This document shows, piece by piece, positions 1,333 to 61,551 of a stretch of 64,000 bases of DNA (its first letter is position 1; every line of letters begins with the position of its first letter). Under the pieces are notes generated by a model. That model made no database searches, had not been told where the DNA came from, and saw only the letters and a program-made list of their open reading frames with translations. Where the stretch lies: contig JBGUDT010000006.1 in NCBI GenBank assembly GCA_041821665.1, positions 6,249-70,248 of the forward strand, given 5' to 3'. The DNA is from Anaerolineales bacterium. Its GTDB lineage: Bacteria > Chloroflexota > Anaerolineae > Anaerolineales > E44-bin32. The translations under genes were made by a program, and so were the position numbers.

Positions 1333-3321
<1,989 letters not shown>

Positions 3322-20974: not shown

Positions 20975-20993
20975 TACTAAAGGGATTTGGGAT

Positions 20994-21064
20994 CGGGGAT
21001 TAGGGATTAGGTTCAACGACCTGATCCCTGTTCCCTAACCCCTAATCCCGCCACTATTTTTTTT
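20994..21064 (+). terminator. Candidate intrinsic terminator separating the two carbamoyltransferase genes
   Basis: An imperfect long hairpin, cggggattagggattagg ... cctaacccctaatcccg, is followed 6 nt later by a T8 run (21057-21064). Confidence 0.45.
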
Positions 21065-21083
21065 ACAAAGGAGGCAGAAACTC

Positions 21084-37824: not shown

Positions 37825-37864
37825 TAATATCGACCGTGCACCAACAGCGTTCTCTTGATGACGA

Positions 37865-37893
37865 CTTCCCAGCATGCTACAATCCAAATACCT
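37865..37893 (+). promoter_or_regulatory. Candidate sigma-70 promoter of the hydroxylase super-operon
   Basis: TTGATG (37865-70), a 17-nt spacer, then TACAAT (37888-93). This predicts a ~100-nt leader before ATG37995. Confidence 0.55.
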
Positions 37894-37994
37894 CGGATCG
37901 GAGGTCGGTCGTGGGGCGTGCCTACGAGCGGCGTTGAGCATTCAGGGTCATCGATAAGTGCCAGCCGATCCTCAAACCCTCGCTGAATTTGAGA

Positions 37995-38915: not shown

Positions 38916-41696
38916 ATGGATTTCATTCTGAATGGTAAAAGCGTCCAAATTGTACCTGAGCCAGGGGAGATGCTGGCTGATCTTCTACGAGTTCGTCTTG
39001 GATTGACGGGCACGAAAATTGGATGCAATGAATCAGAATGCGGTTCGTGCACCGTGCTTATCGATGACGCCCCGATCTTATCGTGCAGCTATCCTGCCCC
39101 ACGGGCGAGCGGGCGTAAGATCCGCACCATCGAAGGACTTAATCAGGACGGGGAGCTTCATCCAATTCAGGAAGCGTTTATTAAACAGGGCGCTGTTCAA
39201 TGTGGGTTTTGCATACCTGGTCAGATCATGACTGCGGTCTCTCTGGTTGAGAAAAACCCAGACCCGAACGAAGATGAGATAAAGAAAGCCCTCAAGGATA
39301 CGCTCTGTCGCTGCGCTGGGTATCCTTCGATCATCGCCGCTATTCAGGATGGCGCACGAGCTCTACGCACCGGCGAACCATTACAAAATGTATCTCTTGT
39401 GGAAGCGGATTCAACAACGGCGATCGGTCATATCCAGCCTCGTCCAGATTCGCGGGCAAAGGTGACCGGGGAAGCGTTGTACGCTGATGATTTTACTTTC
39501 CCCGATATGCTCATCGGAAGGACGCTCAGAGCGGGGATCCCGCATGCTGTCTTGACGAGCTTAGATGTGGGAACCGCAAAAGAACTCAATGGCGTCGCAG
39601 CAGTCCTGACCGCCAAAGATGTTCCCGGAGAACAGAACCATGGGTTGGTCATTCGGGATTGGCCCGTGCTGATCGGCGTGGGTGAGCGAATTCGCTATGT
39701 AGGTGATGCGCTCGCCATTGTAGCCGCCGAGGATGACGAGACCGCACGCCAGGCTCTTGATCTCATTGATGTAACCTACGAACCCCTTGAGGTCGTGAGC
39801 GATCCAGTGCGAGCAAGGTTGGCTGAAAGTCCTGAACTTCACGATCAGGGCAATCTGTTAAAACATATCAAGGTCCGGAAGGGTGATATCGAAGACGGTT
39901 TTAGGGGTGCTGAGATCATCCTCGAGGGAGAGTACCATACGCCCTCCACCGATCACGCTTTTCTCGAGCCGGAGTGCAGTATTGCACGGATCACTGAGGA
40001 CGGGAGAATCGAAGTCGTTGTGGGATCGCAAATTCCATATGCTGATCGGGAGCAAATTGCAGCGTGTCTCGATGTCCCGGTTAACCAGGTCAGGGTTAGG
40101 GGAGCCCTCATCGGCGGCGGTTTCGGAGGCAAGGAGGACATTGCCGGGCAGATCCATGCGGCGCTGCTCGCAAAGGCTACAAATCGACCTGTGAAAATAC
40201 TTTATGATCGTCATGAGAGCCTGATTGTTCATCCGAAAAGGCACGCGACACAAATACGAGTGCGCATGGGCGCCAAACGGGGCGGGGAACTAATCGCGAT
40301 CGAAACCGAGCTTTATGGGGATACCGGCGCATATGCCTCCCTCGGTGAGAAGGTTATGACTCGGGCGATAACACATTCCGCTGGTCCGTATAATCTCCCC
40401 CACGTTAAGGCCGATTGCTATGCGATGTATACCAACAATCCTCCTGCAGGCGCATTTCGTGGATTCGGCGTGACACAATCCTGTTATGCGGTGGAATCGA
40501 TGATGGATCGATTGGCTGAGGAATTGATGATCGATTCCATTGAGATACGGAGGATGAACGCTCTTCAAGTCGGTGATATCACCAACACCGGTCAGCTTCT
40601 CACCGAGAGTGTAGGGCTCCTCGAATGTATCGAGCGTGTTGAGGATGAGCTAAAGAGGGTGTGTAAGGGAGGCGATCCGTTTGCATCCCGGGTTGTGGAT
40701 TCGCAAGAACGAATGCGTCGAGCCTGGGGAATCGCGGCGGCGTATAAGAACACCGGTCTCGGCGGTGGAGCGCCGGATAAAGCTGCTGCTGAGGTAGAGC
40801 TCTATGAGGATGGAACTGCGGAAGTAAGAACCTCTTCGGCGGATATGGGCCAGGGTCTTGTCACCGTCTTACAGCTTATCGCAGCGGAGGAATTCAGTCT
40901 TCACCCGGATAAAGTGCGGGTCTTGCTTTCAGATACAGATTTGACACCGGATGGCGGTCCGACGACAGCTTCACGGCAGACGTATGTAACCGGGAATGCC
41001 GTTCGATATGCATCCGAAGTCCTTCGTCAAGCTGTTACAGCGACACTTGCGGAACGATTTGATGCACCCCCGGATGATGTTCGGTTTGATGAGGGTCTCG
41101 CTCAGGTTAACGGCAGGGAAGTTACCCTGGGAGAATGCGTAAAAATGATGATGTCCGAGGGGAAAGAGCCAGTTGCTTCTTATGAATACTGGGCGCCCGA
41201 GACGCAGCCGTTGGGAGCGGGGGGAGACATGCACTTTGCCTACTCCTTCGCCGTTCAAGCGGCTGAAGTGGAAGTCAATCTTGATACTGGCGAAGTGAAG
41301 GTTTTGCGCGTCATTGCCGCTAACGATGTTGGACGTGTGCTTAATCCTCTGGGCTTGAAGGGCCAGATTGAGGGCGGCGTGATGATGGGGCTTGGCAACG
41401 CGCTAACCGAGGAGTTCATCCTGGATGATGGCGTGATATTTACAGACCGCCTTGCGCGCTATCGGATGCCATCGATCGTGGATACGCCAGAAATTATCTC
41501 TCTTGTGGTTGAGCATCCGACCAGGGACGGTCCTTTCGGTGCGAAAGGCGTAGGTGAAATTTCAAGCATACCCACGACACCCGCGATTACGAATGGGATA
41601 TACAATGCATGTGGCGTGCACATTCAAAACTTGCCCGTGGACCAGGATTGGCTCGCACTTGAACTGGCGAGATTGGAAGGATCAGAAGGTGGATGA
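38916..41696 (+). CDS. Fused [2Fe-2S] + molybdopterin-binding subunit, xanthine dehydrogenase family (XdhD-like), enzyme 1
   Basis: 926 aa. The N-terminus has GCNESECGSCTV, QCGFCIPG and CRCAGY. The Mo domain has IGGGFGGKEDIAG, GAFRGFGV and GAKGVGEIS (candidate catalytic Glu). Confidence 0.9.
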   Translation: MDFILNGKSVQIVPEPGEMLADLLRVRLGLTGTKIGCNESECGSCTVLIDDAPILSCSYPAPRASGRKIRTIEGLNQDGELHPIQEAFIKQGAVQCGFCIPGQIMTAVSLVEKNPDPNEDEIKKALKDTLCRCAGYPSIIAAIQDGARALRTGEPLQNVSLVEADSTTAIGHIQPRPDSRAKVTGEALYADDFTFPDMLIGRTLRAGIPHAVLTSLDVGTAKELNGVAAVLTAKDVPGEQNHGLVIRDWPVLIGVGERIRYVGDALAIVAAEDDETARQALDLIDVTYEPLEVVSDPVRARLAESPELHDQGNLLKHIKVRKGDIEDGFRGAEIILEGEYHTPSTDHAFLEPECSIARITEDGRIEVVVGSQIPYADREQIAACLDVPVNQVRVRGALIGGGFGGKEDIAGQIHAALLAKATNRPVKILYDRHESLIVHPKRHATQIRVRMGAKRGGELIAIETELYGDTGAYASLGEKVMTRAITHSAGPYNLPHVKADCYAMYTNNPPAGAFRGFGVTQSCYAVESMMDRLAEELMIDSIEIRRMNALQVGDITNTGQLLTESVGLLECIERVEDELKRVCKGGDPFASRVVDSQERMRRAWGIAAAYKNTGLGGGAPDKAAAEVELYEDGTAEVRTSSADMGQGLVTVLQLIAAEEFSLHPDKVRVLLSDTDLTPDGGPTTASRQTYVTGNAVRYASEVLRQAVTATLAERFDAPPDDVRFDEGLAQVNGREVTLGECVKMMMSEGKEPVASYEYWAPETQPLGAGGDMHFAYSFAVQAAEVEVNLDTGEVKVLRVIAANDVGRVLNPLGLKGQIEGGVMMGLGNALTEEFILDDGVIFTDRLARYRMPSIVDTPEIISLVVEHPTRDGPFGAKGVGEISSIPTTPAITNGIYNACGVHIQNLPVDQDWLALELARLEGSEGG

Positions 41697-41844: not shown

Positions 41845-43206
41845 ATGGTTATGCTGATCTATAACGCCCGCGTAGTGACCTGGGGTGATACTCCGGAGAT
41901 CCTTGAAGATCACGCTGTGATTATTAAATCCGGCATGATTGATGATATCGGGACGACGGAAGCGCTCTCTAAGAAGTACAGCGGAGATACACGCCTCGAC
42001 GCACGCAACCAGCTCCTCATGCCAGGAAATATTTGTGCTCATACACATTTTTACGGCGCATTTGCACGAGGCATGGCGATCCCGGGACAACCACCGAAAG
42101 ATTTCCCTGCGATCTTGAGCAAGCTGTGGTGGCCATTGGATAAGGCGCTCACCGAAGAGGACGTGCGCTACTCCGCGTTGGTGTGTCTCGTGGATGCTAT
42201 TAAGCATGGGACGACGACGTTGGTAGACCACCACGCATCGCCGAATGCCATCACCGGTTCACTGGATGCCATTGGGAATGCTGTTGATGAATCGGGTCTT
42301 CGAGCGGTGCTGTGTTACGAAGTTACGGATCGTGATGGGAGTGAAAAGGCAAAATTCGGTATTGAGGAAAACCTGCGCTTCCTGAAGAGAATGCGTAACA
42401 ATGGCGTTGCGGGCGGTCGCTTGGCGGGGACCTTTGGTCTCCATGCCAGCCTCACGCTGTCGGATGAGACATTACAATTGTGCCGTGATCGCGCACCCGA
42501 CGACGTTGGATTTCACATCCACGTGGCAGAACATGAAGCGGATGAATATGACAGCCTGGCGAAGTCGGGTATGCGCGTTGTAGATCGACTTAATTCGTAC
42601 GACTTATTGGGGGAAAATTCGATCGTCGCGCATGCGATACATATCGATGCACGCGAAGTTGAGCTGCTTGCAGAAAGCGGCACCTGGGTGACTCACCAAC
42701 CGAGATCGAACATGAACAACGGTGTTGGCGTCGCCGAGATTGAGTCTCTGATCCGTGCGGGTGTGAGGGTTTGCCTCGGCAATGATGGATTTTCAAATGC
42801 GATGTGGGAGGAATGGAAAACCGCCTATCTCTTACACAAAGTATGGCATCGAGACCCACGCCGCATGCCGGGTGACCTGGTGGTGAAAATGGCAGTGGAG
42901 AATAATGGCGCCCTCCTGGGAAGATTCTTTCAGGATGGTCCCCTCGGTACGATCACGCCAGGCGCCTATGCAGATCTAATCCTCGTGGATTACCATGCGA
43001 CAACCCCGCTTACAGAAGGGAATCTACCATGGCATATCCTGTTTGGATTTCACGAGTCGATGGTCACATCGACGATCGTCGCTGGAACGCTGCTCATGCA
43101 CGACAAGAAATTGCTCACGTTGGATGAAGCCGAGATTACAGCACGGTCTCGCGAATTAGCGCCTGATGTTTGGGATCGTTACCAGGCATTCGTACCGGCA
43201 GATTGA
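41845..43206 (+). CDS. ssnA: SsnA-type amidohydrolase (putative aminohydrolase of selenium-dependent hydroxylase clusters)
   Basis: 453 aa. Contains LIYNARVVTWGD...MPGNICAHTHFYGAFARGM, HVAEHEADE and GNDGFS. Confidence 0.8.
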   Translation: MVMLIYNARVVTWGDTPEILEDHAVIIKSGMIDDIGTTEALSKKYSGDTRLDARNQLLMPGNICAHTHFYGAFARGMAIPGQPPKDFPAILSKLWWPLDKALTEEDVRYSALVCLVDAIKHGTTTLVDHHASPNAITGSLDAIGNAVDESGLRAVLCYEVTDRDGSEKAKFGIEENLRFLKRMRNNGVAGGRLAGTFGLHASLTLSDETLQLCRDRAPDDVGFHIHVAEHEADEYDSLAKSGMRVVDRLNSYDLLGENSIVAHAIHIDAREVELLAESGTWVTHQPRSNMNNGVGVAEIESLIRAGVRVCLGNDGFSNAMWEEWKTAYLLHKVWHRDPRRMPGDLVVKMAVENNGALLGRFFQDGPLGTITPGAYADLILVDYHATTPLTEGNLPWHILFGFHESMVTSTIVAGTLLMHDKKLLTLDEAEITARSRELAPDVWDRYQAFVPAD

Positions 43207-43227: not shown

Positions 43228-43887
43228 ATGACCGAACGTTTGATCCTCACCATCGGACTTATTGGGGGAACTGGAAACCTGGGTCCAGGTTTGGCAACAC
43301 GCTGGGCGAGCGCAGGCTATGGCGTCATCATCGGCTCTCGCAGCGAAAAAAAGGCTCAGGGGATCGCGGAAGAGCTAAATACGAAACTCGACATCGAGAG
43401 CATCCGGGGAATGAAGAACGAGGATGCTATCGAAGCAGCAGATATTTGTGTCCTGACGGTGAACCATTCTGCTCACGGGAAGACCATTGAAGTGATCAAG
43501 GATCATCTTGGAGGCAAAATCCTGGTCGACGCGACCGCAAGGGTCGATTTTCGAGATCCGGTCCCACCAGACCCTCCAGCAGCCGCCCGGCTCGCCCAGG
43601 ATGTTATCGGAGAGGCCGGCAGGGTGGTAGCTGCGTTTCAGACAGTTCCTGCCCACGCACTTCAGGAAAATATCGGCATGCCGCTTGACCTCGATGTACT
43701 CGTATGTGCGGACGATGATGAAGCCGCTGCCGAAGTCGTCAAACTGGTCAAAGGCGCGGATATGCGTGCCTATTACGCTGGGAAACTGGACAACGCTATT
43801 GTAGCGGAAGGGATGACTGCTCTACTTATCGCGATGAATAAGAAGTACGAATCCAGGACCGGGACCATTCGAATCTCGGGGTTATGA
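43228..43887 (+). CDS. npdG: NADPH-dependent F420 reductase
   Basis: 219 aa. Rossmann motif IGLIGGTGNLGPGLATRWASAGYGVIIGSR, and a C-terminal GTIRISGL typical of Fno/NpdG. Confidence 0.85.
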   Translation: MTERLILTIGLIGGTGNLGPGLATRWASAGYGVIIGSRSEKKAQGIAEELNTKLDIESIRGMKNEDAIEAADICVLTVNHSAHGKTIEVIKDHLGGKILVDATARVDFRDPVPPDPPAAARLAQDVIGEAGRVVAAFQTVPAHALQENIGMPLDLDVLVCADDDEAAAEVVKLVKGADMRAYYAGKLDNAIVAEGMTALLIAMNKKYESRTGTIRISGL

Positions 43888-44669
43888 ACGCACAGAGCGC
43901 ATCTTCACTCGTCCTTACGGCTCTTTCGGGTATTCCGGTTGTCCAACCCGGTGATGACCTGACCAAACTAACGATCACAGGACTGAGTGACTCTGGCATC
44001 GCTCTCTCACACGGCGACGTTTTGGTGTTCGCGCAGAAAATTGTATCTAAAGCTGAGGATCGTTTCGTCAATCTTGACAAAGTCACGCCATCATCTAAGG
44101 CGAAAAAGTTAGCTGATGAAACTGGCAAAGATGCGCGGCTGGTTGAAGTTATCTTACAGGAAAGTGTGCGTGTCGTACGTACTCGGGAAAATCTCATCAT
44201 TGTGGAGCATCGGTTGGGCTTTGTGTGCGCCAATGCTGGCGTGGACCATTCGAATGTCGCCTCTCCAAGTGGTCAGCCAGGGGAATGGGTCTTGCTCCTC
44301 CCAGAAAATCCTGACGAATCGGCTCAACGCTTGTGGAAAGAAATCCAGGACAGCACGGGTGCAAACATCGGTGTATTGATTATCGACTCGCATGGGCGCG
44401 CCTGGAGACTTGGGACCGTGGGGGTTGCGATTGGAATCGCTGGTTTCCCTGCATTGTTGGATATGCGAGGCAAGCCGGACCTCTACGGAGACACTCTCAT
44501 GGTTACGCAAGTGGGTCTCGCGGATGAGGTGGCTGCTGGGGCTTCAGCACTTATGGGTCAGGCTGATGAAGGTCGCCCAATTGTGCATGTGTGCGGACTC
44601 CCGTATGAGCTGCGTGAAGGCAACTTACGTGAACTGATTCGACCGAAAGACGAAGACCTGTTTCGATAG
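43884..44669 (+). CDS. cofE: Coenzyme F420-0:L-glutamate ligase
   Basis: 261 aa. Contains PGDDL, VFAQKIVSKAEDR, GFVCANAGVDHSNV and IIDSHGRAWRLGTVGVAIG. 4-nt overlap with npdG. Confidence 0.9.
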   Translation: MNAQSASSLVLTALSGIPVVQPGDDLTKLTITGLSDSGIALSHGDVLVFAQKIVSKAEDRFVNLDKVTPSSKAKKLADETGKDARLVEVILQESVRVVRTRENLIIVEHRLGFVCANAGVDHSNVASPSGQPGEWVLLLPENPDESAQRLWKEIQDSTGANIGVLIIDSHGRAWRLGTVGVAIGIAGFPALLDMRGKPDLYGDTLMVTQVGLADEVAAGASALMGQADEGRPIVHVCGLPYELREGNLRELIRPKDEDLFR

Positions 44670-44690
44670 GTTAATGTGCAAAGGTACCGT

Positions 44691-45089
44691 ATGGAACTTA
44701 TTCCCAACTCTCACCTAGATCTTCTCCAGGACGACCGAAAAGCCATAGCCATACTTTCGACGGTTATGGCGGATGGCAGCCCCCAATCCACACCCGTATG
44801 GTTTGACACTGACGATGGTTTGATACGGGTGAATACCGCCCATGGGCGTGTGAAAGACAATAACATGACCCTTCGACCGCAGGTGGCCGTGGTCATACTT
44901 GATCCAGAGTCGATATATCGCTATGTTCAGATCCGAGGTCTCGTTGTGAAATCATCGGAAGATGGCGCTCGAGCGCATATTGATTTACTGGCGAAGAAGT
45001 ATCTCGGACAACGGACTTACGAAAACTACGATGGAGAGACGCGTGTGATGTATTTCATCAAACCCATCTCCGTCAGCGTGATGGGATGA
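44691..45089 (+). CDS. PPOX-class (pyridoxamine-5'-phosphate-oxidase fold) probable F420-dependent enzyme
   Basis: About 132 aa. Split-barrel signature ILSTVMADGSPQSTPVWFDTDDGLIRVNTAHGRVKDNNM. The start could be GTG44676. Confidence 0.75.
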   Translation: MELIPNSHLDLLQDDRKAIAILSTVMADGSPQSTPVWFDTDDGLIRVNTAHGRVKDNNMTLRPQVAVVILDPESIYRYVQIRGLVVKSSEDGARAHIDLLAKKYLGQRTYENYDGETRVMYFIKPISVSVMG

Positions 45090-45700
45090 TGGACTCAAAC
45101 AAAACATTCTCTGAAGTCGTTGTTGGAAGACGGTCGATAAGGGTATTCAAGGATACGCCCGTACCCCGGCACGCCCTGGAGTCAGCGCTAACCTACGCTA
45201 CGTTTGCGCCTTCGGCACACAACCGTCAGCCATGGCGATTTGCCGTAATCACCGACAAAGAACAGAAAGTCAGTCTGGCGAATTCCATGGGGCAGAGGCT
45301 GAAGCGAGAACGCGTACAGGATGGCGATGACCAAACGGTGATCGAAAAGGATTTAGCCCAATCCTTCACAATGTTGACAAAAGCGGGTGCGATCATACTA
45401 ATTTGTCTCACCATGGAGGATATGGATTCTTACCCGGATGCTCCTCGGAATCTCCATGAACTGCATTTGGCCATTCAGAGCGTGGCCATGGCAGGTCAGA
45501 ATCTGCTGCTCGGTTTGCAGGCTGAAGGCCTTGGAGCTTGTTGGATGTGTGCACCGCTCTTCGCCCCAGAAGAAGTTGCAGCCTGTTTCGATCTGCCTAC
45601 ATCATGGGAACCGCAGGGGCTCATCATCGTTGGATATCCACTTAAGCCGGCGTTGAAAAAGGACCATAAATCCACCGAGGAATTAATTAAGTGGCTTTGA
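45086..45700 (+). CDS. Nitroreductase-fold protein, stand-alone equivalent of the FbiB C-terminal (dehydro-F420-0 reductase) domain
   Basis: 204 aa. Contains RRSIRVFKDTPVPRHALESALTYATFAPSAHNRQPWRFAVI and GACWMCAP. It lies between cofE/PPOX and cofD with 4-nt and 10-nt overlaps. Confidence 0.7.
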   Translation: MMDSNKTFSEVVVGRRSIRVFKDTPVPRHALESALTYATFAPSAHNRQPWRFAVITDKEQKVSLANSMGQRLKRERVQDGDDQTVIEKDLAQSFTMLTKAGAIILICLTMEDMDSYPDAPRNLHELHLAIQSVAMAGQNLLLGLQAEGLGACWMCAPLFAPEEVAACFDLPTSWEPQGLIIVGYPLKPALKKDHKSTEELIKWL

Positions 45701-46641
45701 AGCTCGTTGCCCTCGCAGGCGGTGTGGGCGGCGCAAAACTCGCCCACGGTTTGGCGCGCTTGGAAGGTGCAGAAGAGCTGACCGTCGTAGTAAACACTGG
45801 GGATGATTTTGTACACCTTGGTTTAAAAATATGTCCAGATCTGGATACTGTGACGTACACCCTTGCCGGGGTTGCGAATCCTGAGACGGGCTGGGGACGT
45901 GCGGATGAAACCTGGAGTTTCATTGCTGCGCTGCAGGAGTTGAATGGACCCACCTGGTTCCGTCTGGGGGACCGTGATCTTGCCACCCACGTATTCCGCA
46001 CCCACAAACTTATGAACGGGTATAAATTGAGCGCAATCACGAAAGAGATCTGCGAGAGCTATGGCATTCAGACACGATTGCTTCCCATGACGGACGATAC
46101 GGTCAATACCATCGTGCAGACTTCGAACGGAGATCTTCCTTTCCAGGAGTATTTCGTGGCTAGGTCATGTCAGCCCGTCGTAGAAGGCTTTTATTTTGAG
46201 GGGGTAGAAACCGCGCAACCGGCACCGGGCGTATTAGAATCCATACAGGACGCTGATGCTGTGATCCTTTGCCCCTCCAATCCCTGGGTAAGCCTGGATC
46301 CCATCCTGGCGATCCCTGGCATCCGGGACGCGTTGATGTCAAAGATCGTGATTGGTGTAAGCCCGATTATTCAGGGTCGAGCTTTGAAGGGACCAGCCGG
46401 GAAAATGTTTCAGGAACTCGGAATTGAACCATCAGCAGCCGCCGTTGCAGAGCATTATCAGGACCTGCTCACCGGCTTTGTGCTAGATATTAAAGATAAA
46501 GACCTTGCTGGTGAGATCAGCAATTTTGGAATCGAAGTGAAAATCACCGATACAATGATGACGTCGGATGAGAAACGTCTCACACTTGCGGAGGAAATCT
46601 TGGAAACCATTGCTTCACGAACGATGACGGAGGAAACATAG
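45691..46641 (+). CDS. cofD: 2-phospho-L-lactate (or enolpyruvyl) transferase, F420 biosynthesis
   Basis: 316 aa. Contains LAGGVGGAKLAHGL, NTGDDFVHLGLKICPDLDTVTYTLAG, WGRADETW and CPSNPWVS. Confidence 0.92.
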   Translation: MALKLVALAGGVGGAKLAHGLARLEGAEELTVVVNTGDDFVHLGLKICPDLDTVTYTLAGVANPETGWGRADETWSFIAALQELNGPTWFRLGDRDLATHVFRTHKLMNGYKLSAITKEICESYGIQTRLLPMTDDTVNTIVQTSNGDLPFQEYFVARSCQPVVEGFYFEGVETAQPAPGVLESIQDADAVILCPSNPWVSLDPILAIPGIRDALMSKIVIGVSPIIQGRALKGPAGKMFQELGIEPSAAAVAEHYQDLLTGFVLDIKDKDLAGEISNFGIEVKITDTMMTSDEKRLTLAEEILETIASRTMTEET

Positions 46642-47276
46642 TGACATTATGGGCGATCGTACCGATCAAGCCCCTGGGGCGTGCAAAATCGAGGCTCTCA
46701 AGTGTGTTATCACGAGAGGAGAGAACGACTCTGAGCCGGGACATGATGGTGCACCTGCTCGATGTGCTCGGGGAAGTTCCAGGGATCGAGCGCACGCTCG
46801 TGGTCAGTCGAGACACCCAGGCCCTGGCCCTGGCTCGGGAGCATGGCGCCAGGACGGTTGCCGAATGGGGAACACCAGATCTCAACCCGGCTCTCGTACG
46901 CGCCACCATCGTCGCTAAGCAATACGGAGTCTCAGGCGTGCTTGTATTACCCGCTGATCTCCCTCTAATCTCTCCCCAGGATGTGGAGACATTAATCTCC
47001 AAAGCGGATCAACCCCCGGTCGTCGTGATCGCCCCAGATAGGCACCGCAGTGGGACGAACGCGCTGCTGGCGATTCCACCCGGTTTGATAGAATATGATT
47101 TTGGGCCGGACAGCTTCCAACGTCATCTCGATAGGGCGGAACAAGCAGGAGTGCGTGTGGAAGTCTGTGAGCTACCCTCGCTGGGCTTGGATGTGGACAT
47201 ACCCGAGGACCTTGAAATCCTGCGACAGGAAAAGTCCCCCATCTCCATAGGTGCAATTGAGGAGGAACAAGAATGA
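46641..47276 (+). CDS. cofC: Phospholactate/phosphoenolpyruvate guanylyltransferase, F420 biosynthesis
   Basis: 211 aa. Contains [46 protein letters not shown], and [14 protein letters not shown] start with a 1-nt overlap with cofD. Confidence 0.88.
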
Positions 47277-48274
47277 GCTTCGATCGAGTGGCACTCTATC
47301 TACAAGATGCGCATGATTTACGAGAAGGATTAGATTACGTTCGGTATGCTGAAGAAAAGGGCTTTGACGCAGTCTGGCAGGCAGAATCGCGGCTTGTGCG
47401 CGATGCAATCGTGCCCATGGCAGCGTATGCAGCGGTCACCGAGAAGATCACAATTGGTTCCGGGGTTATTAATAATTGGACAAGGAACATTGGTTTGCTT
47501 GCGTCGACTTATTTGACTTTGGATGATCTCGCTCCCAACCGCATCATTTGCGGTATAGGTGCATGGTGGGATCCTCTTGCGAAAAATGTCGGAATCGAAC
47601 GGCGAAAACCACTGCTCGCTATGAAGGAGACTATTGAGGTATTTCGAAGACTGCTCAATATGGAGCAGGTGACATTTCATGGGGAGTTTCATCAGGTTGA
47701 CGGGATTGAGCTTGATGTGGTCCACGGTCGGCGTGAACCGAGGAATGTCCCCGTTTATATCGGTGCGACGGGACCAAAGATGATGGAACTAACCGGTGAG
47801 ATCGCAGACGGTGTCGTTTTGAACTATTGTGTTCCACCAGATTACAACAATCAGGCAATGGAGCGTCTTGAGGTTGGAGCAAAGAGAGCAGGTCGTTCCG
47901 TGGATGATCTTGATCGCCCTCAACTCGTTGTATGTTCCGTTGATATGGACGAGGACAAGGCGTTGGACACCAGCCGGGAGCTCCTCACGCAATACCTGGC
48001 ACAGCAGCCACATATCGCTAAAGCCAGCGGTGTGTCCCAGGACATTGTGGATGAGATTCAAGCCATTCTCGGTTGGCCCGCGACACACGAACAAATTGTG
48101 CAAGCGAAACACCTTGTGCCGGATGAGCTCGTTACGCGTATCACGGCATCAGGAACTCCAGAGCAAGCCAAGGCGAAAGTTCAGGAATATATTGATAACG
48201 GTTCAACCTGTCCGATACTTTACCCTGTGGGTGGCGATATTAAACTGCTCATCGATACTTTCAGCCCAGGCTAA
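47273..48274 (+). CDS. Luciferase-like (LLM class) F420-dependent oxidoreductase
   Basis: 333 aa. TIM-barrel LLM features [55 protein letters not shown]. 4-nt overlap with cofC. Confidence 0.8.
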
Positions 48275-48319: not shown

Positions 48320-48817
48320 ATGGACGAGGCGGAGAGAAAGTCTATGCAAAATTCTCGCATCAAGCAGCCTAATTCAAAAAATTGTTTCGCTTGTGGCGTG
48401 GAGAACGAGCATGGTCTCGGAGTGCAGTTTTACGAAATTAACGGGGATGAGCTCGTTGCTGAATATGTCGTTCCTGAGCAATTCGAGGGATTCCCCGGCA
48501 TCGTCCATGGGGGCATTACCGCCTCCATCCTTGACGAAATGTTATCTAGAGTAGCGATGATCGGTGAACCCGATCGATTTTGGATGACCGCAAAGATGGA
48601 GCTCCGTTACCGCGCGCCTGTGCCCACGGGTCAGATGCTCAAGCTCCGTGCCGTTATTGAGAAGCGGAGAGGACGCATAATCTTCACCAAAGCCGAGTTG
48701 AGGCTCCCCGATGGAACAGTGGCGGCCGAGGCAAATGGAATGATGGTTAACGCCGATGAAGCTCTATTGGAGGGCGCAAATCTTGAGGAGCTCGGCTGGA
48801 AGGTCTATCCAGATTAG
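48320..48817 (+). CDS. PaaI/4HBT-type hotdog-fold thioesterase
   Basis: 165 aa. Contains NCFACGVENEHGLGVQFY and GIVHGGITASILDEMLS. Confidence 0.8.
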   Translation: MDEAERKSMQNSRIKQPNSKNCFACGVENEHGLGVQFYEINGDELVAEYVVPEQFEGFPGIVHGGITASILDEMLSRVAMIGEPDRFWMTAKMELRYRAPVPTGQMLKLRAVIEKRRGRIIFTKAELRLPDGTVAAEANGMMVNADEALLEGANLEELGWKVYPD

Positions 48818-48842: not shown

Positions 48843-49622
48843 ATGTCAGAATTGAAATACTCACGACCCTCCAAGATGAAGAAAGCACTCAAGCTCATCG
48901 AAACTGGCGACCCCCTCGCTGGTGGCACATCAATCACACCGCGTCGGGGAAGTTATACCAGGCTGGTGGATATCCAAGACTTGGGGTTGGATTCAATAGA
49001 AGTTAACGATGAATTTATTAAGGTGGGCGCTGGGGCTAAGCTGCAAAAATTCCTTGAAGAGATTGGGGAATATTCAGAACCGCTTGCAAAAGCCTGCCGG
49101 TTAGAAGCAGGCTTGAATATACGTCTGATGTCATCTCTCGGCGGTACGATTGTCGAAGCCGATGGACGTTCGCCTTTCCTGACGGCATTGCTTGCTATGG
49201 ATACTACGGTCATTCTCGAACCTGGGGCCAAGAACCTACCTTTGGAAAAACTCCTGAAAAATAGGAAGAAACGTATTGCAGACCGACTTATTACGGAAAT
49301 TGTTCTGCGCATACCTGAAAAGATGGCATTTGAATATGTGGCACGATCTCCAGCGGATCGCCCGTTGGTCTGTTCTGCGGCTGCATTGTACAGGGAAGGG
49401 ACGAATCAAAGCATATTCATATCTCTTGGTGGTTTTGGTGCAGTACCCATTCGCATCGCTAAATCGGAGAAGGAGATTATGGATAGAGGCAATCTCGAAG
49501 CGGCCACCCGGATAGCATCACAAATGTATGCGGAAGCGGAGGATTCGTTTGCGAGTGGAGAATATCGAAGCCATGTCTCCGGTGTCCTGGTAAAACGAGT
49601 TCTCGAGGAGGTCCTTTCCTGA
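48843..49622 (+). CDS. YgfM-like FAD-binding subunit of a xanthine dehydrogenase family enzyme, enzyme 2
   Basis: 259 aa from ATG48843 (MSELKYSRPSKMKKALKLI). Contains PLAGGTSI and SSLGGTIVEADGRSP. It lies directly upstream of the XdhD-like gene with a 1-nt overlap. Confidence 0.75.
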   Translation: MSELKYSRPSKMKKALKLIETGDPLAGGTSITPRRGSYTRLVDIQDLGLDSIEVNDEFIKVGAGAKLQKFLEEIGEYSEPLAKACRLEAGLNIRLMSSLGGTIVEADGRSPFLTALLAMDTTVILEPGAKNLPLEKLLKNRKKRIADRLITEIVLRIPEKMAFEYVARSPADRPLVCSAAALYREGTNQSIFISLGGFGAVPIRIAKSEKEIMDRGNLEAATRIASQMYAEAEDSFASGEYRSHVSGVLVKRVLEEVLS

Positions 49623-52615
49623 TGCTTATCGACTTCCTTCTTAACGGAGAATCTATCCAGGTTGGAGTAAGTCCTGACAAGACACTCCTATCGCTTTTAC
49701 GTGAAGATCTTGGATTGTTTGGCGTGAAACATGGTTGTGAAACTGGCGAGTGTGGCGCATGTACGGTGCTGCTCGATGGCGCTCCGATGAATGCGTGCGT
49801 CATGCTCGCCGTGCAGGTCGATGGTCATGCTATCACCACGATTGAATCCGTGGGTGAGCATCCGGATCAAGGTTGGCATAAGACCGAGGGTCTGGATGCT
49901 ATCCAGGCGGCATTTGTGGAGACCGGTGCCATCCAGTGCGGCTTTTGCACCCCTGCCATGGTGCTTTCCGCCAGGATGCTTTTAGAGAAGAATCCGAATC
50001 CGACCGAAGCCGATGTCCGGGAAAATCTCTCGGGGATCCTCTGCCGCTGCACTGGTTACCTCAAACCAGTGCAGGCCATCCTGCGAGCCGCCGCGGTTCT
50101 ACGCGGTGAAACGGTGAACCCGATAGAGGGTGGGGAACCATTAATAATGGATGTTTTACCCTCCGAAGATCTGCCGAGACCGGAAGGAGACTGGGAACGG
50201 GGCGGACCTGATGTGGTCACCCGCACAGAAGTCATGCCCAGGATCCAGATCGCATCGCACCAGCAGCCACACCAGACGGTGGGGAAACCAGAACCGAAAG
50301 TCGACGCACTGAAGCTTGTGCAAGGTAAACCAGCATTCACGGCAGACATCGAAATGCGCGGCATGCTTGTCGCAAAAGTCCTGCACAGCCCGGTTTCGCA
50401 TGCCAGGATAACGAGCATCGATGCGGAGAAGGCGCGTGCAATTCCAGGTGTTGCTGCGGTGCTCACTTGGGAGGACATCCCCAGAGTGGTCTACTCCACG
50501 GCTGGGCAGTCCGATCCAATTCCAGGTCCGCTGGACACGTTCTCTCTGGATCATAAGGTTCGGTTTGTTGGTGATCGTGTCGCATTTGTCGCAGCCGAGA
50601 CCGAGGCAATCGCGGAGGAGGCAATATCGCTCATTGACGTGGAGTACGAGATCCTTCCCCCGATCATCGACTACACCACCGCGCTCGATAAAGACGCACC
50701 GCAGATCCACGATGAGCCCGAATATGTCAATTTTGCGGAATCTGATCCAAGCAGGAATCTAGCCGCCCAGATTAAGATTGATATTGGTGATGTGGAGATG
50801 GGTTTTTTGGAAGCTGACCGTATCTTTGAAGAGACGTATGAGGTCCCAAAAGTTAACCCAGCGCATATCGAACCGCATGTTGTCGTGACTTATTGGGACG
50901 AAGACGATCGTCTGGTCATTCGTACGAGCACACAAGTTCCATTCCACGTGCGGCGTATAATTTCACCCGCCCTTGATCTGCCACCGAAACGCATACGTGT
51001 CATCAAACCACGCATCGGCGGCGGCTTTGGCGGGAAACAGGAAGTTTTGATTGAAGACGTCGCCGCCCACCTGACCATCGCGACGGGTCGACCGGTACGG
51101 TTCGAGTACACACGGGAGGAAGAGTTTATCGCAGCTCGCTCACGTCATCCCATGCAAATCCGCATGAAGACCGGGGTTAAGCTTGATGGCACGATCACCG
51201 CAAATGAAATGCTCGTGGTAAGTGACACAGGTGCGTACGGCTGTCACGCGCTCACCGTCACCGGAAATACCGGTCACAAGGCGATGGCGCTGTATGTTGG
51301 GGATGGTGCGTATAGAAAATCACCGAATATTCGCTTCTACGCGGACGTTGTGTATTCCAATACGCCACCTTCAGGAGCATATCGTGGATATGGTGTCCCT
51401 CAGGGCTTCTGGCCGGTAGAGAGGCAGATGGAGAAGATTGCTCGGGAGCTGGGTCATGATCCGATTGAATTCCGCCTGAAGAACGCGCTGCGGGCAGGTG
51501 AACTGCATCCATTCAGCTCAGCCTGGTCAGAGGGTCGCGAACCGCGACCGGAGACAATTAACACTTGTGGGCTTGAGGATTGCGCCGCGCAGGGCGCAGC
51601 CGCAATTGGTTGGCAGGTAAAGTTCTCGGATGATGCCTGGCATGAAGTGGCCGGCAAGCCTCATCTTAGACGCGGGATAGGGGTTGCCCTTGTTATGCAA
51701 GGGACTGCGATTCCGTACCTCGATATGGGCGGCGCAAGCATTAAGATGAACGATGATGGTTCCTTTAATCTTCTCGTCGGTGCAACCGATCTGGGGACAG
51801 GTTCGGATACTGTGCTCGCCCAGCTGGCAGCGGAGGTTCTGGGAACTCCTGTGGATGATATCATCGTGTATTCATCGGACACCGACTTTACGCCATTCGA
51901 CAAAGGCGCATACGCTTCCAGCACGACGTATATCTCAGGAGCCGCAGTCGTCCGTGCGGCGGAAGCTGTCGCGGCACGCATCTGTGACCGTGCCGCAAGA
52001 TTACTCAGTGAAGAAGGAAACAAAGTACTGCCCGCCGACATCCGGCTTCATGATCGTGCGGCATGGGGGCCGGATGGGCGTTCGATTTCCCTGGGAGAGA
52101 TTGCTCTGAATGCACTGCACCACGAGGATCAAGAGCAAATCATGGCCGTGGGATCATTTATGTCCACCGTAGCCCCTCCGCCGTTTGGGGCACAGTTCGC
52201 GGAGGTGCTCGTCGATATCGAAACGGGTGCTGTGAAAGTACAAAAGCTGGTCATGGCCGTGGATTCCGGTGTGATCGTCAACCCTCTCACGGCATCGGGG
52301 CAAATTGAGGGGGGCATGACCCAGGCGCTGGGGTATGCGGTTTGCGAGGAGATGATCTACGATGATGCGGGACGACCACGTGAAATTGACTTCACGGATT
52401 ACCATATATTCGCCGCGCATGAGATGCCAGAACTTGAAACCATCTTTGTCGAGACGATCGAACCATCTCATCCCTTTGGCGTGAAAGCGGTCGCCGAAAT
52501 TCCGATGGATGGCGTTGCCCCAGCTGTGGGGAACGCCGTCTTGGATGCTTGCGGGGCGGATGTACATACACTACCGGTGACACCGGAACGGGTTTGGAGG
52601 GCATTACGGGGATAG
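49622..52615 (+). CDS. Fused [2Fe-2S] + molybdopterin-binding subunit, xanthine dehydrogenase family (XdhD-like), enzyme 2
   Basis: 997 aa. Contains GCETGECGACTV, QCGFCTPA, CRCTGY, IGGGFGGKQEVLI, GAYRGYGVPQ and GVKAVAEIP. Confidence 0.9.
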   Translation: MLIDFLLNGESIQVGVSPDKTLLSLLREDLGLFGVKHGCETGECGACTVLLDGAPMNACVMLAVQVDGHAITTIESVGEHPDQGWHKTEGLDAIQAAFVETGAIQCGFCTPAMVLSARMLLEKNPNPTEADVRENLSGILCRCTGYLKPVQAILRAAAVLRGETVNPIEGGEPLIMDVLPSEDLPRPEGDWERGGPDVVTRTEVMPRIQIASHQQPHQTVGKPEPKVDALKLVQGKPAFTADIEMRGMLVAKVLHSPVSHARITSIDAEKARAIPGVAAVLTWEDIPRVVYSTAGQSDPIPGPLDTFSLDHKVRFVGDRVAFVAAETEAIAEEAISLIDVEYEILPPIIDYTTALDKDAPQIHDEPEYVNFAESDPSRNLAAQIKIDIGDVEMGFLEADRIFEETYEVPKVNPAHIEPHVVVTYWDEDDRLVIRTSTQVPFHVRRIISPALDLPPKRIRVIKPRIGGGFGGKQEVLIEDVAAHLTIATGRPVRFEYTREEEFIAARSRHPMQIRMKTGVKLDGTITANEMLVVSDTGAYGCHALTVTGNTGHKAMALYVGDGAYRKSPNIRFYADVVYSNTPPSGAYRGYGVPQGFWPVERQMEKIARELGHDPIEFRLKNALRAGELHPFSSAWSEGREPRPETINTCGLEDCAAQGAAAIGWQVKFSDDAWHEVAGKPHLRRGIGVALVMQGTAIPYLDMGGASIKMNDDGSFNLLVGATDLGTGSDTVLAQLAAEVLGTPVDDIIVYSSDTDFTPFDKGAYASSTTYISGAAVVRAAEAVAARICDRAARLLSEEGNKVLPADIRLHDRAAWGPDGRSISLGEIALNALHHEDQEQIMAVGSFMSTVAPPPFGAQFAEVLVDIETGAVKVQKLVMAVDSGVIVNPLTASGQIEGGMTQALGYAVCEEMIYDDAGRPREIDFTDYHIFAAHEMPELETIFVETIEPSHPFGVKAVAEIPMDGVAPAVGNAVLDACGADVHTLPVTPERVWRALRG

Positions 52616-54801: not shown

Positions 54802-54830
54802 TCAAGCATCGGAGAAATTCAAACATTCCA

Positions 54831-56249: not shown

Positions 56250-56346
56250 ACTCTGTATACTTGTAAGAGTGAAGATGGAATGAAGTAACCCATAGGGCGG
56301 CAAGCAGCACGCATCACACAATTACAGGGACGAAAGAGAGGATGCT

Positions 56347-56739: not shown

Positions 56740-56743
56740 CATC

Positions 56744-58447: not shown

Positions 58448-58512
58448 AGACGGATTAAGTGTGCTCGAGTACTTCTGTGGATAATTTCACCTAATTTATT
58501 GAGGCAGGTTGT

Positions 58513-61547: not shown

Positions 61548-61551
61548 GATT

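Follow-up and report, generated by a model that had tools for sequence, protein, structure and literature searches.

An F420 gene block within a reductive uric-acid pathway cluster of Anaerolineales, and a proposed F420-dependent substitute for YgfK

The reductive uric-acid (2,8-dioxopurine) pathway, whose reconstitution in E. coli was reported in 2025, is represented by two reference clusters: that of E. coli, with the order ygeW-ygeX-ygeY-hyuA-yqeA ... ygfK-ssnA-ygfM-xdhD, and that of C. sporogenes (Li et al. 2025, PMC12507026; Liu et al. 2025, bioRxiv 10.1101/2025.04.24.650524). Its dearomatizing reductase is YgfK, an NAD(P)H/FMN/FAD/Fe-S enzyme (DOPOR). YgfK yields product only if it is coupled to SsnA, and in the C. 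difficile variant of the pathway UacX, a PydA-like, ferredoxin-dependent reductase, stands in its stead (Li et al. 2025, PMC12507026). A single sentence of the same paper (Life Metab) places a putative F420-dependent LLM in the position of YgfK in Chloroflexota. The idea of an F420-LLM swap is therefore not new, and the link between F420 and purine fermentation, of which the initial annotation of the DNA studied here knew no description, had already been proposed.

The DNA that we analyzed, termed the window, is a 64,000-nt stretch of the Anaerolineales bacterium MAG GCA_041821665.1 (contig JBGUDT010000006.1, positions 6,249-70,248 of the forward strand). Most of the reductive uric-acid pathway is encoded within it; what had been read as generic purine hydroxylase chemistry is this specific reductive urate route. 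Like the reference clusters, the window contains SsnA and counterparts of E. coli XdhD (with the Glu606 insertion), YgfM, HyuA, YgeW, YqeA (carbamate kinase), YqeB, YqeC, and MocA, and the local order ssnA ... ygfM-xdhD is common to both. Unlike them, it has no YgeY or YgeX orthologues, and its lower pathway thus differs from the characterized one. Two more sets of Mo-hydroxylase genes are present in addition, along with genes for a hotdog protein, DUF6909, and a DHH pyrophosphatase-like protein. Counts given below for upstream genes refer to the 57 species-level loci of Anaerolineales whose upstream flank was long enough, and those for downstream genes to 60 loci.

The pathway genes outside the F420 block are on the + strand. 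Purines are fed into the pathway by an 8-oxoguanine deaminase-like amidohydrolase (15950-17329; NF006055, 672 bits, cut-off 532) and an adenine deaminase (17369-19159; Adenine_deam_C Pfam domain). Ureido cleavage yielding ATP falls to a YgeW-like carbamoyltransferase (21084-22064; 33.5% identity to EcYgeW; YgeW model score 188 versus a cut-off of 500) and a YqeA-like carbamate kinase (22079-23038; 48% identity to EcYqeA; NF009007, 413.7 bits, cut-off 266). The HyuA-type D-hydantoinase/dihydropyrimidinase (32659-34080) scores 543.8 bits with TIGR02033 (cut-off 393) and is 40.5% identical to E. coli HyuA. A promoter-like site at 37855-37883 is the likely start of an operon that begins with an XdhB-like FAD subunit (37989-38870) and a selenium-dependent-XDH-like FeS/Mo subunit (38916-41696; TIGR03311, 798 bits, just below the cut-off of 830). 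SsnA (41845-43206; NF005540, 518.9 bits, cut-off 444; 34% full-length identity to E. coli SsnA) is the ring-opening amidohydrolase and the marker enzyme for the reductive urate pathway.

Beyond the F420 genes lie a YgfM-like FAD subunit (48843-49622; 28% identity to EcYgfM) and an XdhD-like FeS/Mo subunit (49622-52615; 36% full-length identity to EcXdhD, 506 bits). Within the window, the XdhD-like protein alone carries the XdhD-specific insertion with the equivalent of Glu606, a residue of E. coli XdhD that has been linked to 2,8-dioxopurine formation (Li et al. 2025, PMC12507026). Together, the two subunits are a putative urate 6-dehydroxylase producing 2,8-dioxopurine. The genes at 52657-62880 encode, in order, a DHH-CBS-DHHA2 pyrophosphatase-like protein, an XdhC maturation factor, an FAD+FeS subunit, DUF6909, a PucD-like Mo subunit, YqeB, and YqeC-MocA, the last of which serve selenium-dependent Mo-cofactor maturation. 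A hotdog-fold (4HBT/PaaI-like) protein (48344-48817; PF03061; 31 of 60 loci) precedes the YgfM-like gene; its position is conserved, yet the published pathway gives no role to a hotdog protein. FolD is encoded at 14329-15291.

As initially annotated, seven co-directional + strand genes occupy positions 43228-48274 between ssnA and hotdog-ygfM-xdhD, and family profiles agree with their assignments. The first is NpdG/Fno, a reductase that recharges F420 with electrons from NADPH (43228-43887; TIGR01915, 165.4 bits, cut-off 149.8), followed by CofE, the F420-0:gamma-glutamyl ligase (43884-44669; TIGR01916, 268.6 bits, cut-off 180.65). Next come a PPOX-class (FDOR-B-like) F420 split-barrel protein (44691-45089, with an alternative GTG start at 44676; TIGR03618, 90.7 bits, cut-off 79.05; best PDB match 3f7e) and a stand-alone nitroreductase-fold protein of FbiB-C-terminal/FbiE-like type (45086-45700; best family the FbiB C-terminal domain, TIGR03553, 138.6 bits, below the cut-off of 249.55). 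The best PDB match of the latter is the C-terminal domain of M. tuberculosis FbiB (4xom, E 1e-25), and we regard it as a putative dehydro-F420 reductase. CofD, a 2-phospho-L-lactate (or enolpyruvyl) transferase (45691-46641; TIGR01819, 332.6 bits, cut-off 257.45; 51 of 57 loci), and the CofC/FbiD guanylyltransferase (46641-47276; TIGR03552, 167.8 bits, cut-off 105), whose FGPDS motif with its diagnostic Gly is of the 2-PL/PEP type, precede the LLM-class F420-type oxidoreductase (47273-48274; PF00296, 226.6 bits).

Overlaps of 1-10 nt, initially described throughout the block, are present at five of its six junctions: 4 nt at npdG/cofE, PPOX/nitroreductase, and cofC/LLM, 10 nt at nitroreductase/cofD, and 1 nt at cofD/cofC. 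The exception is cofE/PPOX, with a 6- or 21-nt gap. The end of ssnA (43206) lies 21 nt ahead of npdG, and the spacing from the LLM gene to the hotdog gene is 45 or 69 nt. The overlaps suggest translational coupling of the block, and its genes are probably co-transcribed with the pathway enzymes; no internal promoter or terminator signals above chance were found that would point to independent transcription. The module had been called complete, which holds for tail assembly but not for the whole cofactor. Because neither the window nor any flank contains an Fo synthase, the module alone is unable to make F420.

A tblastn search with E. coli YgfK as the query (E <= 1e-5) gave no match in the window, as had been noted from the sequence, and YgfK is absent at all 80 related genome loci. 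The E. coli order ygfK-ssnA-ygfM-xdhD has its parallel in ssnA-[F420 genes-LLM]-hotdog-ygfM-xdhD, with an F420-type LLM, NpdG, and cofC/D/E instead of YgfK. Reduction of 2,8-dioxopurine is the sole pathway step that lacks a candidate enzyme. We propose that the LLM is an F420H2:2,8-dioxopurine reductase, a non-homologous replacement for YgfK, and consider it reasonably probable that the locus encodes an Anaerolineales version of the pathway in which a two-protein, F420-mediated hydride relay has taken the place of YgfK. Urate would be dehydroxylated to 2,8-dioxopurine by XdhD-YgfM and/or the Se-XDH-like enzyme. NpdG would use NADPH to form F420H2, from which the LLM would move a hydride to 2,8-dioxopurine and dearomatize the ring. 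Hydrolytic ring opening by SsnA would pull this unfavorable reduction, and HyuA, the YgeW-like carbamoyltransferase, and carbamate kinase would carry the pathway onward. CofC, CofD, the FbiE-like nitroreductase, and CofE would convert Fo to F420-n, and their co-transcription with the pathway enzymes would co-regulate cofactor supply with the pathway. F420H2 is just marginally more reducing than NADPH, and this slight edge counts against the swap, as do the absence of an Fo synthase and that of YgeY and YgeX orthologues.

Conservation of the neighborhood in relatives, on which the initial annotation made its proposal depend, proved strong. The order ssnA-npdG-cofE-...-cofC-LLM is retained in about 55 of the 57 species-level Anaerolineales loci (CofC in 56, CofE in 55, NpdG in 55, SsnA in 54), and cofC is directly upstream of the LLM gene in 76 of 80 loci. 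Genes upstream of ssnA vary among lineages; thus, the block is retained despite rearrangement. XdhD is found downstream in 46 of 60 loci; at 14 of 60, the first 10 kb downstream are devoid of Mo-hydroxylase genes, which counts against the proposed relay. Several relatives without the nitroreductase have a 2H-phosphoesterase-like gene in its place. The most conserved protein is the LLM, with 78-87% identity versus 43-63% for its neighbors.

The PPOX-class protein, the other reductase suggested initially, could in principle be the purine-ring reductase, leaving another role to the LLM. Its score exceeds the cut-off of the F420-dependent PPOX family, and FDORs reduce activated C=C bonds of heterocycles (Grinter & Greening 2021, PMC8498797; general knowledge). 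However, it is present at just 24 of 57 loci, is missing in cultured Anaerolinea, Pelolinea, and Bellilinea and in all Gaiellaceae-type clusters, and is conserved far less well than the LLM (mean identity 52% versus 81%). This distribution makes it a most improbable pathway reductase, and we treat it as accessory.

The LLM, in contrast, accompanies the purine genes without the cofactor genes. Genes of its family in Gaiellaceae (Actinomycetota) overlap ssnA by 4 nt, with no cof genes nearby, and 14 high-GC metagenome loci and a Gaiellaceae MAG have the order Se-XDH-SsnA-LLM-FAD-FeS, with 4-nt overlaps and without cof genes. At one locus (L017), the LLM gene stays beside hotdog-ygfM-xdhD with no cof genes upstream, and some lineages without XdhD and YgfM still have SsnA and the LLM. 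The linkage of the LLM to purine genes is conserved across two phyla. Because of the Gaiellaceae overlap, the LLM behaves as a pathway enzyme rather than as a passenger of a cofactor operon, and this overlap together with the synteny supports the functional tie between F420 and purine genes that was first suggested. The linkage is frequent rather than universal, since 18 of 54 relatives from metagenomes (62-80% identity) stand alone in unrelated neighborhoods, and part of the synteny may reflect inheritance rather than selection, because most of it comes from one order.

The LLM looks like an F420-type rather than an FMN-type enzyme, as initially expected. All 16 of its best NCBIfam families are F420-class LLMs, the best scoring 181.8 bits versus 37.6 bits for the first FMN-dependent family (SsuD). 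Its top PDB sequence matches are Mer, FGD, and Adf, and the top 27 Foldseek PDB matches of its predicted structure (pLDDT 94.5) are all F420 enzymes. Among relatives of 62-87% identity in all genomic contexts, Y9, Q11, Q36, S39, and Q240 are invariant and H14 and H151 nearly so; this seven-residue signature is rare among other LLMs.

With Mer as the best family and PDB match, and with JGI annotating the LLM as Mer, the block might be a housekeeping F420 operon that sits beside purine genes through shared ancestry, its LLM acting in C1 metabolism like Mer, for instance as a methylene-H4F/H4MPT reductase, or being some other, unrelated enzyme. The presence of FolD in the window (14329-15291) and near a sister-clade locus (L090) fits this account, as does the third of LLM metagenome relatives that lie away from purine genes. 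However, the LLM falls under both Mer cut-offs (181.8 versus 276; 175.4 versus 348.7), is 30% identical to jMer, and has an invariant Tyr9 aligned with Glu6, the residue mutated in the Mer E6Q structure. By sequence, it is not Mer. Given also the overlap with ssnA in a Mo-hydroxylase operon without cof genes and the retention of the block while its surroundings rearrange, we judge the housekeeping account quite unlikely.

The substrate of the LLM and the direction of hydride flow are those that we infer; the evidence establishes linkage rather than substrate. The LLM could therefore act elsewhere in the same pathway, by reducing urate, xanthine, or a ring-opened ureide, by feeding electrons to XdhD-YgfM or Se-XDH, or as an F420-reducing dehydrogenase that oxidizes an intermediate. 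The YgfM-like subunit is highly divergent (25-45% identity), which leaves room for a change of its electron donor, and the clostridial DOPDH does not use NAD(P)H (Dodd-lab data). This placement is unlikely: it leaves dioxopurine reduction unassigned, the tightest partner of the LLM is SsnA and not a Mo enzyme (as seen in the Gaiellaceae overlap and in the lineages without XdhD and YgfM), and the presence of NpdG speaks for consumption of F420H2 in the operon rather than its production.

Replacement of YgfK by the LLM as 2,8-dioxopurine reductase would have a precedent in C. difficile UacX, in which the dearomatizing reductase is likewise an exchangeable module matched to the redox carrier of the host. 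UacX has an FMN/DHODH fold (PF01180), whereas the replacement in the window would be a TIM-barrel LLM whose cofactor the operon must build. For the cofactor genes, the nearest parallel is F420 biosynthesis in Thermomicrobium roseum, also of the Chloroflexota, where a homologue of the FbiB C-terminal domain occurs as a protein of its own, "FbiE" (Braga et al. 2020, as related in PMC8498797). As in that account, the window has separate CofC, CofD, and CofE and a stand-alone nitroreductase-fold candidate for the dehydro-F420 reductase; as distinct from it, the F420 genes lie inside a catabolic operon with no Fo synthase nearby, and about half of the relatives do without the nitroreductase (present at 28 of 57 loci).

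Among solved structures, the LLM is closest to methanogen Mer, an F420-dependent methylene-H4MPT reductase (PDB 8qpl, 1z69; TM 0.88, rmsd 2.3 A). The two share their fold and presumably their F420-binding architecture; in addition to the Tyr9 substitution, the LLM clade is set apart by three inserted residues, H151-G152-R153, and by further polar residues of its signature. The Npd system of picrate degradation in Rhodococcus/Nocardioides combines NpdG with the LLM-class F420H2 hydride transferases NpdI/NpdC ("Fht") (Grinter & Greening 2021, PMC8498797, Table 1; partly general knowledge). The window, whose NpdG fits the NpdG equivalog model, would follow the same two-component logic, from NADPH through NpdG and F420H2 to an LLM-fold transferase that dearomatizes an electron-poor ring. 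The substrate is a nitroaromatic in the one and a purine in the other, and the likeness is one of component logic and does not imply orthology of the LLM with NpdI. Npd serves xenobiotic degradation in aerobic actinomycetes, whereas the system in the window would serve primary catabolism in anaerobes.

The reductive pathway of anaerobic urate degradation was reconstituted in two studies in 2025 (Li et al., PMC12507026; Liu et al., bioRxiv 10.1101/2025.04.24.650524). In this pathway, urate is converted to 2,8-dioxopurine by XdhD-YgfM or by a selenium-dependent XdhAC. YgfK then uses NAD(P)H to reduce and dearomatize 2,8-dioxopurine, and SsnA opens the ring. The later steps, which lead to pyruvate, involve HyuA, YgeW/YqeA (or UacY, the partner of UacX), YgeY, and YgeX. 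The YgfK product was seen only with SsnA present.

Family scans reveal that the window carries a large purine-catabolic island. Its genes encode, in order, an 8-oxoguanine deaminase-like protein, adenine deaminase, a GntR regulator, two carbamoyltransferases, carbamate kinase, a Bmp-type ABC transporter, two PALP enzymes, D-hydantoinase, an XdhB-like FAD subunit, and a Se-XDH-like Mo protein. These are followed by SsnA, a block of F420-related genes, a hotdog protein, YgfM-like and XdhD-like proteins, a DHH pyrophosphatase-like protein, XdhC, an FAD/FeS subunit, DUF6909, a PucD-like Mo subunit, YqeB, and YqeC-MocA. A gyrB gene is located near the window start (1396-3321), and thus the island is less than ~60 kb from a typical origin-proximal gene.

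Proteins of the E. coli K-12 cluster were searched against the window. The marker enzyme SsnA (41845-43206, + strand) scores 518.9 bits against model NF005540 (cut-off 444) and is 34% identical to E. coli SsnA over its full length. Among the three Mo proteins of the window, the XdhD-like protein is the best match to E. coli XdhD (36% identity, full length, 506 bits), and the YgfM-like FAD subunit is 28% identical to E. coli YgfM. Glu606 of E. coli XdhD, which has been tied to 2,8-dioxopurine formation (Li et al., PMC12507026), sits in an insertion that, among the window proteins, only the XdhD-like protein shares, with a conserved Glu. Judged by these similarities, the XdhD-type Mo hydroxylase and YgfM FAD subunit belong to the pathway as a putative urate 6-dehydroxylase. 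Matches were also obtained for HyuA hydantoinase (TIGR02033 543.8 bits, cut-off 393; 40.5% identity to E. coli HyuA) and carbamate kinase (413.7 bits, cut-off 266; 48% to YqeA), and E. coli YqeB, YqeC, and MocA have counterparts in the window. The YgeW-like carbamoyltransferase is 33.5% identical to its E. coli counterpart, and its 188 bits fall below the YgeW model cut-off of 500.

The initial annotation stated that the window lacks a YgfK homolog, and a tblastn search of the window with E. coli YgfK (IPR017701) indeed produced no match. The window also has no DHODH-fold gene that could encode UacX (PF01180), no match to YgeY, no counterpart of YgfS/T, and no YgeX ortholog; a weak YgeX match (29% over 173 amino acids) is a ThrC-like PLP enzyme. 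The regions 20021-22064, 28170-29447, and 30450-31910 encode an ATCase-like carbamoyltransferase (TIGR00670 242 bits, cut-off 237), the YgeW-like one, and two PALP-family enzymes. Such genes occur with ssnA in other lineages too (loci L092-L095 and L172 among those carrying LLM relatives). The two PALP-family enzymes and the second carbamoyltransferase may substitute for YgeY/YgeX, and the lower pathway in the window is probably not identical to that of E. coli. The gene order ygfK-ssnA-ygfM-xdhD of E. coli compares with ssnA-[npdG ... cofC-LLM]-hotdog-ygfM-xdhD in the window.

ORF listing and family scans confirmed the seven co-directional genes of the F420 block (43228-48274, + strand) that had been read from the sequence. 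These genes encode, in order, an NpdG/Fno NADPH-dependent F420 reductase (TIGR01915 equivalog 165.4 bits, cut-off 149.8), CofE (268.6 bits, equivalog cut-off 180.65), a PPOX-class F420 protein of the FDOR-B group (TIGR03618 90.7 bits, cut-off 79.05; closest PDB entry 3f7e), a stand-alone nitroreductase, CofD/FbiA (332.6 bits, equivalog cut-off 257.45), CofC/FbiD (167.8 bits, equivalog cut-off 105), and an LLM protein, that is, a luciferase-like oxidoreductase (47273-48274; PF00296 226.6 bits). The nitroreductase is best matched by the FbiB_CTERM family, although its 138.6 bits are below the cut-off of 249.55, and a PDB search gives the C-terminal domain of M. tuberculosis FbiB as its best solved relative (4xom, E 1e-25).

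Junctions within the block are -4, +6/+21, -4, -10, -1, and -4 nucleotides from 5' to 3'. The overlaps of 1-10 nucleotides that had been noted throughout therefore exist at five junctions, whereas the remaining one is a short gap. In addition, npdG begins 21 nucleotides after the end of ssnA, and 45-69 nucleotides separate LLM from the next gene. We infer that the genes of the block are translationally coupled. Between 37000 and 56900, promoter-like and terminator-like sites show no excess over shuffled sequence (11 versus 16.3 expected; 15 versus 15.6), and the + strand inside the block has only weak 9/12 matches in these scans. An Rfam scan of the entire window produced no match.

A scan of species-representative genomes for LLM detected at least 564 relatives, of which the best 80 loci were analyzed. 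All 80 belong to Anaerolineales or unclassified Chloroflexota, and they include the cultured Anaerolinea thermophila and Pelolinea submarina as well as MAGs of Bellilinea, Levilinea, Longilinea, and Leptolinea. A contig of Anaerolineales MAG GCA_041821465.1 encodes an LLM identical to that of the window and shares its gene order, which places the window in Chloroflexota rather than in a purine fermenter of the clostridial type. The neighborhood is conserved in these relatives, in keeping with the association proposed in the initial annotation: where at least 6.5 kb of sequence precedes LLM (57 loci), CofC is present in 56, CofE and NpdG in 55 each, SsnA in 54, and CofD in 51. The nitroreductase is present in 28 of the 57 and missing in 29. 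An XdhD-type or PucD-type Mo subunit lies downstream in 46 of the 60 loci with at least 5 kb of downstream sequence. The genes 5' of ssnA vary (Se-XDH, hydantoinase, another Mo subunit, or unrelated), so the F420 block persists through rearrangement. The block is real and well conserved, and it offers a good candidate for an enzyme activity that is new.

No protein of the set is better conserved than LLM (78-87% identity, mean 81%). Mean identity is 63% in SsnA, 61.5% in XdhD, 56-59% in the products of the cof genes, and 43% in NpdG. The cofC gene adjoins LLM in 76 of the 80 loci, which is circumstantial evidence that LLM uses F420. The PPOX protein, itself of an F420-related class, could instead be the reductase; its gene is present in 24 of the 57 loci, and we consider this assignment very improbable.

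YgfK was also absent from the 80 related loci by tblastn, except for partial GltD-domain similarity in three Anaerolineales loci (L009, L035, and L067). The similarity resides in an 834-amino acid PreT+PreA/dihydropyrimidine dehydrogenase-like fusion encoded beside LLM (L009 3528-6032; L035 7418-9910; L067 11204-13708), which is composed of GltD-like, DHODH-like, and 4Fe-4S parts. In all three loci, the fusion adjoins a second SsnA paralog (44-45% identity). The fusion together with this paralog could be a second, UacX/PydA-like reductase-hydrolase pair.

Several other genes recur in the cluster. Of 60 related loci, 31 have a gene for a hotdog-fold (4HBT/PaaI-like) protein between LLM and ygfM (48320/48344-48817 in the window), and a homolog is found near the sister-clade cluster L090; thioester chemistry is not known in the published reductive urate pathway. 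A 605-amino acid DUF6909 protein (56630-58447; 733 bits) is encoded among Mo-hydroxylase genes, and also occurs in other Anaerolineae orders (L092, L103, L104, and L110). At 28 of 60 loci, the cluster also contains the gene for a DHH-CBS-DHHA2 protein resembling Mn-dependent pyrophosphatases (52657-54000 in the window). Speculatively, this protein might clear PPi from CofC or MocA.

The 16 best-scoring NCBIfam families for LLM are all of the F420 class. PDB sequence matches include Mer (E 9e-41), FGD, and Adf, with FMN-dependent SsuD trailing at E 3e-6. A 71-sequence alignment was used to build an AlphaFold model, whose mean pLDDT is 94.5 and whose top 27 Foldseek matches in PDB are all F420 enzymes. 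The model superimposes on jMer with bound F420 with a TM score of 0.88 and an rmsd of 2.3 Å, versus a TM score of ~0.70 for FMN enzymes such as MsuD. The sequence and the predicted structure thus indicate a TIM-barrel protein of the LLM fold whose nearest relatives are F420-dependent rather than FMN-dependent, as in the F420-dependent luciferase-like hydride transferases (LLHT).

Mer, the 5,10-methylene-H4MPT reductase, is the first-ranked NCBIfam family for LLM, and the block could accordingly be viewed as an F420 operon of housekeeping function whose LLM is Mer-like. However, LLM falls below both Mer cut-offs (equivalog 181.8 bits versus 276; 175.4 versus 348.7) and is 30% identical to jMer. 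Moreover, Mer Glu6 (E6Q in PDB 8qq8) corresponds to Tyr9 of LLM by a constant three-residue HMMER offset, the alignment of the first 20 residues being inferred. We therefore reject identity with Mer itself, and consider the housekeeping explanation improbable. Sewell et al. (2017) describe canonical MetF only, with no proposal of a Mer-like MTHFR for Chloroflexi.

Across the 80 genome orthologs and 80 metagenome relatives, in any context, Y9, Q11, Q36, S39, and Q240 of LLM are invariant, and H14 and H151 are nearly so. These signature residues are found in no more than 10% of LLM proteins at 30-42% identity. These polar residues lie at or just past the ends of β-strands 1-2 and in a clade-specific insertion, H151-G152-R153. 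Judged by the fold, this placement would put them in the substrate-pocket region of the barrel.

The most economical model is that LLM and F420 are a non-homologous replacement of YgfK. NpdG would use NADPH to form F420H2, LLM would pass a hydride from F420H2 to 2,8-dioxopurine, and SsnA would pull this reduction forward. The F420 tail-assembly genes would share an operon with the pathway, so F420 would be available when the pathway is on. We regard this specific assignment as probable. The weaker claim, that LLM and F420 serve this purine pathway in some way, is likely, and we hold it with more confidence than the specific assignment.

A metagenome scan seeded with more distant LLM relatives revealed four architectures. 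Type A is window-like (LLM 79-85% identical to that of the window). Type B is found in other Anaerolineae orders (LLM ~70%), with the order ssnA-npdG-cofE-NTR-cofD-cofC-LLM, where NTR is the nitroreductase gene, and a membrane orphan in place of hotdog-ygfM-xdhD. Type C comprises high-GC loci (~70% GC; LLM 63-67%) with the order Se-XDH-like - SsnA - LLM - FAD/FeS and no cof genes. In type D, LLM is divergent from NTR-cofD-cofC. The orphan that follows LLM in other Anaerolineae orders (818-821 amino acids; L090 11002-13458; L084 1891-4356; also L092, L094, L103, L104, L113, and L116) has at least six predicted TM segments and no Pfam or PDB sequence match. Its homologs are named "hypothetical", apart from one with DUF2079 and one with a glycosyltransferase-like name. 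We considered it as a purine-chemistry protein and judged it probably unrelated.

The high-GC type C loci belong to Gaiellaceae, of the phylum Actinomycetota. In Gaiellaceae MAG GCA_054308045.1, a Se-XDH - SsnA - LLM - FAD - FeS operon without cof genes is present (L172 6202-11005). Its Mo enzyme scores 961 bits against the Se-dependent XDH equivalog (cut-off 830), SsnA is the sole strong family of the next gene (404 bits, cut-off 444), and the Mo/SsnA and SsnA/LLM junctions are 4-nucleotide overlaps. Further loci are similar (L115, L119, L143, L146, L148-L151, L162, and L165-L167). In this operon LLM is separate from the genes for the cofactor and joined to SsnA, as would be expected of a YgfK replacement. 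Thus, the F420-urate link seems to span two phyla.

Usable upstream sequence was available at 54 metagenome loci. Directly 5' of LLM lies cofC in 21 of them, ssnA in 14, a Mo gene of the Se-XDH-like kind in 1 (L117), and an unrelated gene in 18. Lone LLM genes of this last kind retain the full signature residues at 62-80% identity (L098, L100, L108, L120, L125, L127, L133, L136, L147, L157, L163, and L164), with neighbors such as an AMP-dependent ligase, ABC permeases, a GAF histidine kinase, QueG, and a DAO oxidoreductase. The clusters next closest to LLM in a representative library (clustering at 50% identity) are only ~51% identical to it, and relatives grade from there to Mer-like proteins at 30-35%. 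Relatives at 43-51% have mixed contexts: some adjoin cofC (L084 and L090), one overlaps a TRZ/ATZ-type amidohydrolase gene rather than SsnA (L085), one lies between hydantoinase-like and SsnA-like genes (L088), and one has an unrelated context (L091). These contexts are suggestive, not decisive. That an F420-dependent LLM acts at a different step of the same pathway is unlikely, though it deserves some weight.

PEP as the CofC substrate requires a dehydro-F420 reductase (PMC8498797), a role that the stand-alone nitroreductase, by its similarity to the FbiB C-terminal domain, would fit (as that domain or as FbiE). Biogas sludge can contain 3PG-F420 (PMC8764529), and we considered whether lineages without the nitroreductase make this form. 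In all 71 CofC sequences that could be read, including that of the window, the diagnostic position of motif FGxxS is the Gly of the 2-PL/PEP type, which makes 3PG-F420 unlikely, and we rejected the idea. At 15 loci, a 2H-phosphoesterase-superfamily protein of 180-196 amino acids (Pfam 2_5_RNA_ligase2, E ~1e-11 to 1e-12) is encoded between cofE and cofD, in the place of the window's PPOX and nitroreductase genes (for example, Anaerolinea thermophila L019 7853-8401; L075 865-1455). This protein and the nitroreductase are almost mutually exclusive (14 loci with the former alone, 29 with the nitroreductase alone, 1 with both), and it may point to a variant F420 side-chain route.

Fo synthase (CofG+CofH or FbiC) is absent from the window, and no CxxxCxxC radical-SAM ORF of Fo synthase size lies in the flanks of the 80 genome loci. 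Literature searches on cofH in Anaerolinea or F420 in Anaerolineae yielded nothing usable. The lack of an Fo synthase gene in the window and these flanks and the co-operonic tail genes are compatible with Fo salvage. In its full form, this proposal holds that the operon is a self-contained cofactor-salvage and enzyme cassette: Anaerolineales would make no Fo, import what methanogens or other producers nearby release, and convert it to F420 only during purine fermentation, solely for a dearomatizing F420H2:2,8-dioxopurine reductase. We consider the full proposal rather unlikely. If true, anaerobic purine degradation in an abundant digester and sediment group would hinge on deazaflavin cross-feeding.

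The initial annotation was not aware of a described link between F420 and purine fermentation, but the idea was already in print in 2025 as a bioinformatic remark. Li et al. (PMC12507026), the only paper in the literature searched that ties F420 to the reductive urate pathway, name Chloroflexota alone for an F420-type replacement, and offer neither experiments nor a word on the cofC/D/E and npdG genes located nearby. A 2021 F420 review (PMC8498797) has "Fht" and "Fno" entries for picrate-system enzymes and leaves purines unmentioned. Thus, we add no new concept to the published prediction. What is new here is comparative evidence and a directly testable enzyme: the embedded and conserved genes for assembling and recycling the cofactor, the extreme conservation and signature residues of LLM, the ssnA coupling in a second phylum, and the question of the Fo source.

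If LLM is an F420H2-dependent 2,8-dioxopurine reductase, central purine catabolism would gain its first F420 enzyme, and F420 its first assigned physiological role in anaerobic Chloroflexota. The assignment would also explain the presence of a gene mis-annotated as "Mer" in hundreds of Anaerolineae and Gaiellaceae genomes. As a small (333 amino acids), single-domain, F420-requiring candidate without Fe-S clusters, LLM could interest those engineering urate-lowering probiotics. For the most difficult step in the anaerobic degradation of urate, it would add a third, non-homologous solution to YgfK and UacX. The NpdG/NpdI picrate system of actinomycetes relies on F420H2 and a hydride transferase of the LLM fold to dearomatize an electron-poor ring. 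This system appears to be the closest mechanistic analog of the model proposed for LLM, in which F420H2 and an LLM-fold enzyme would likewise dearomatize a ring.
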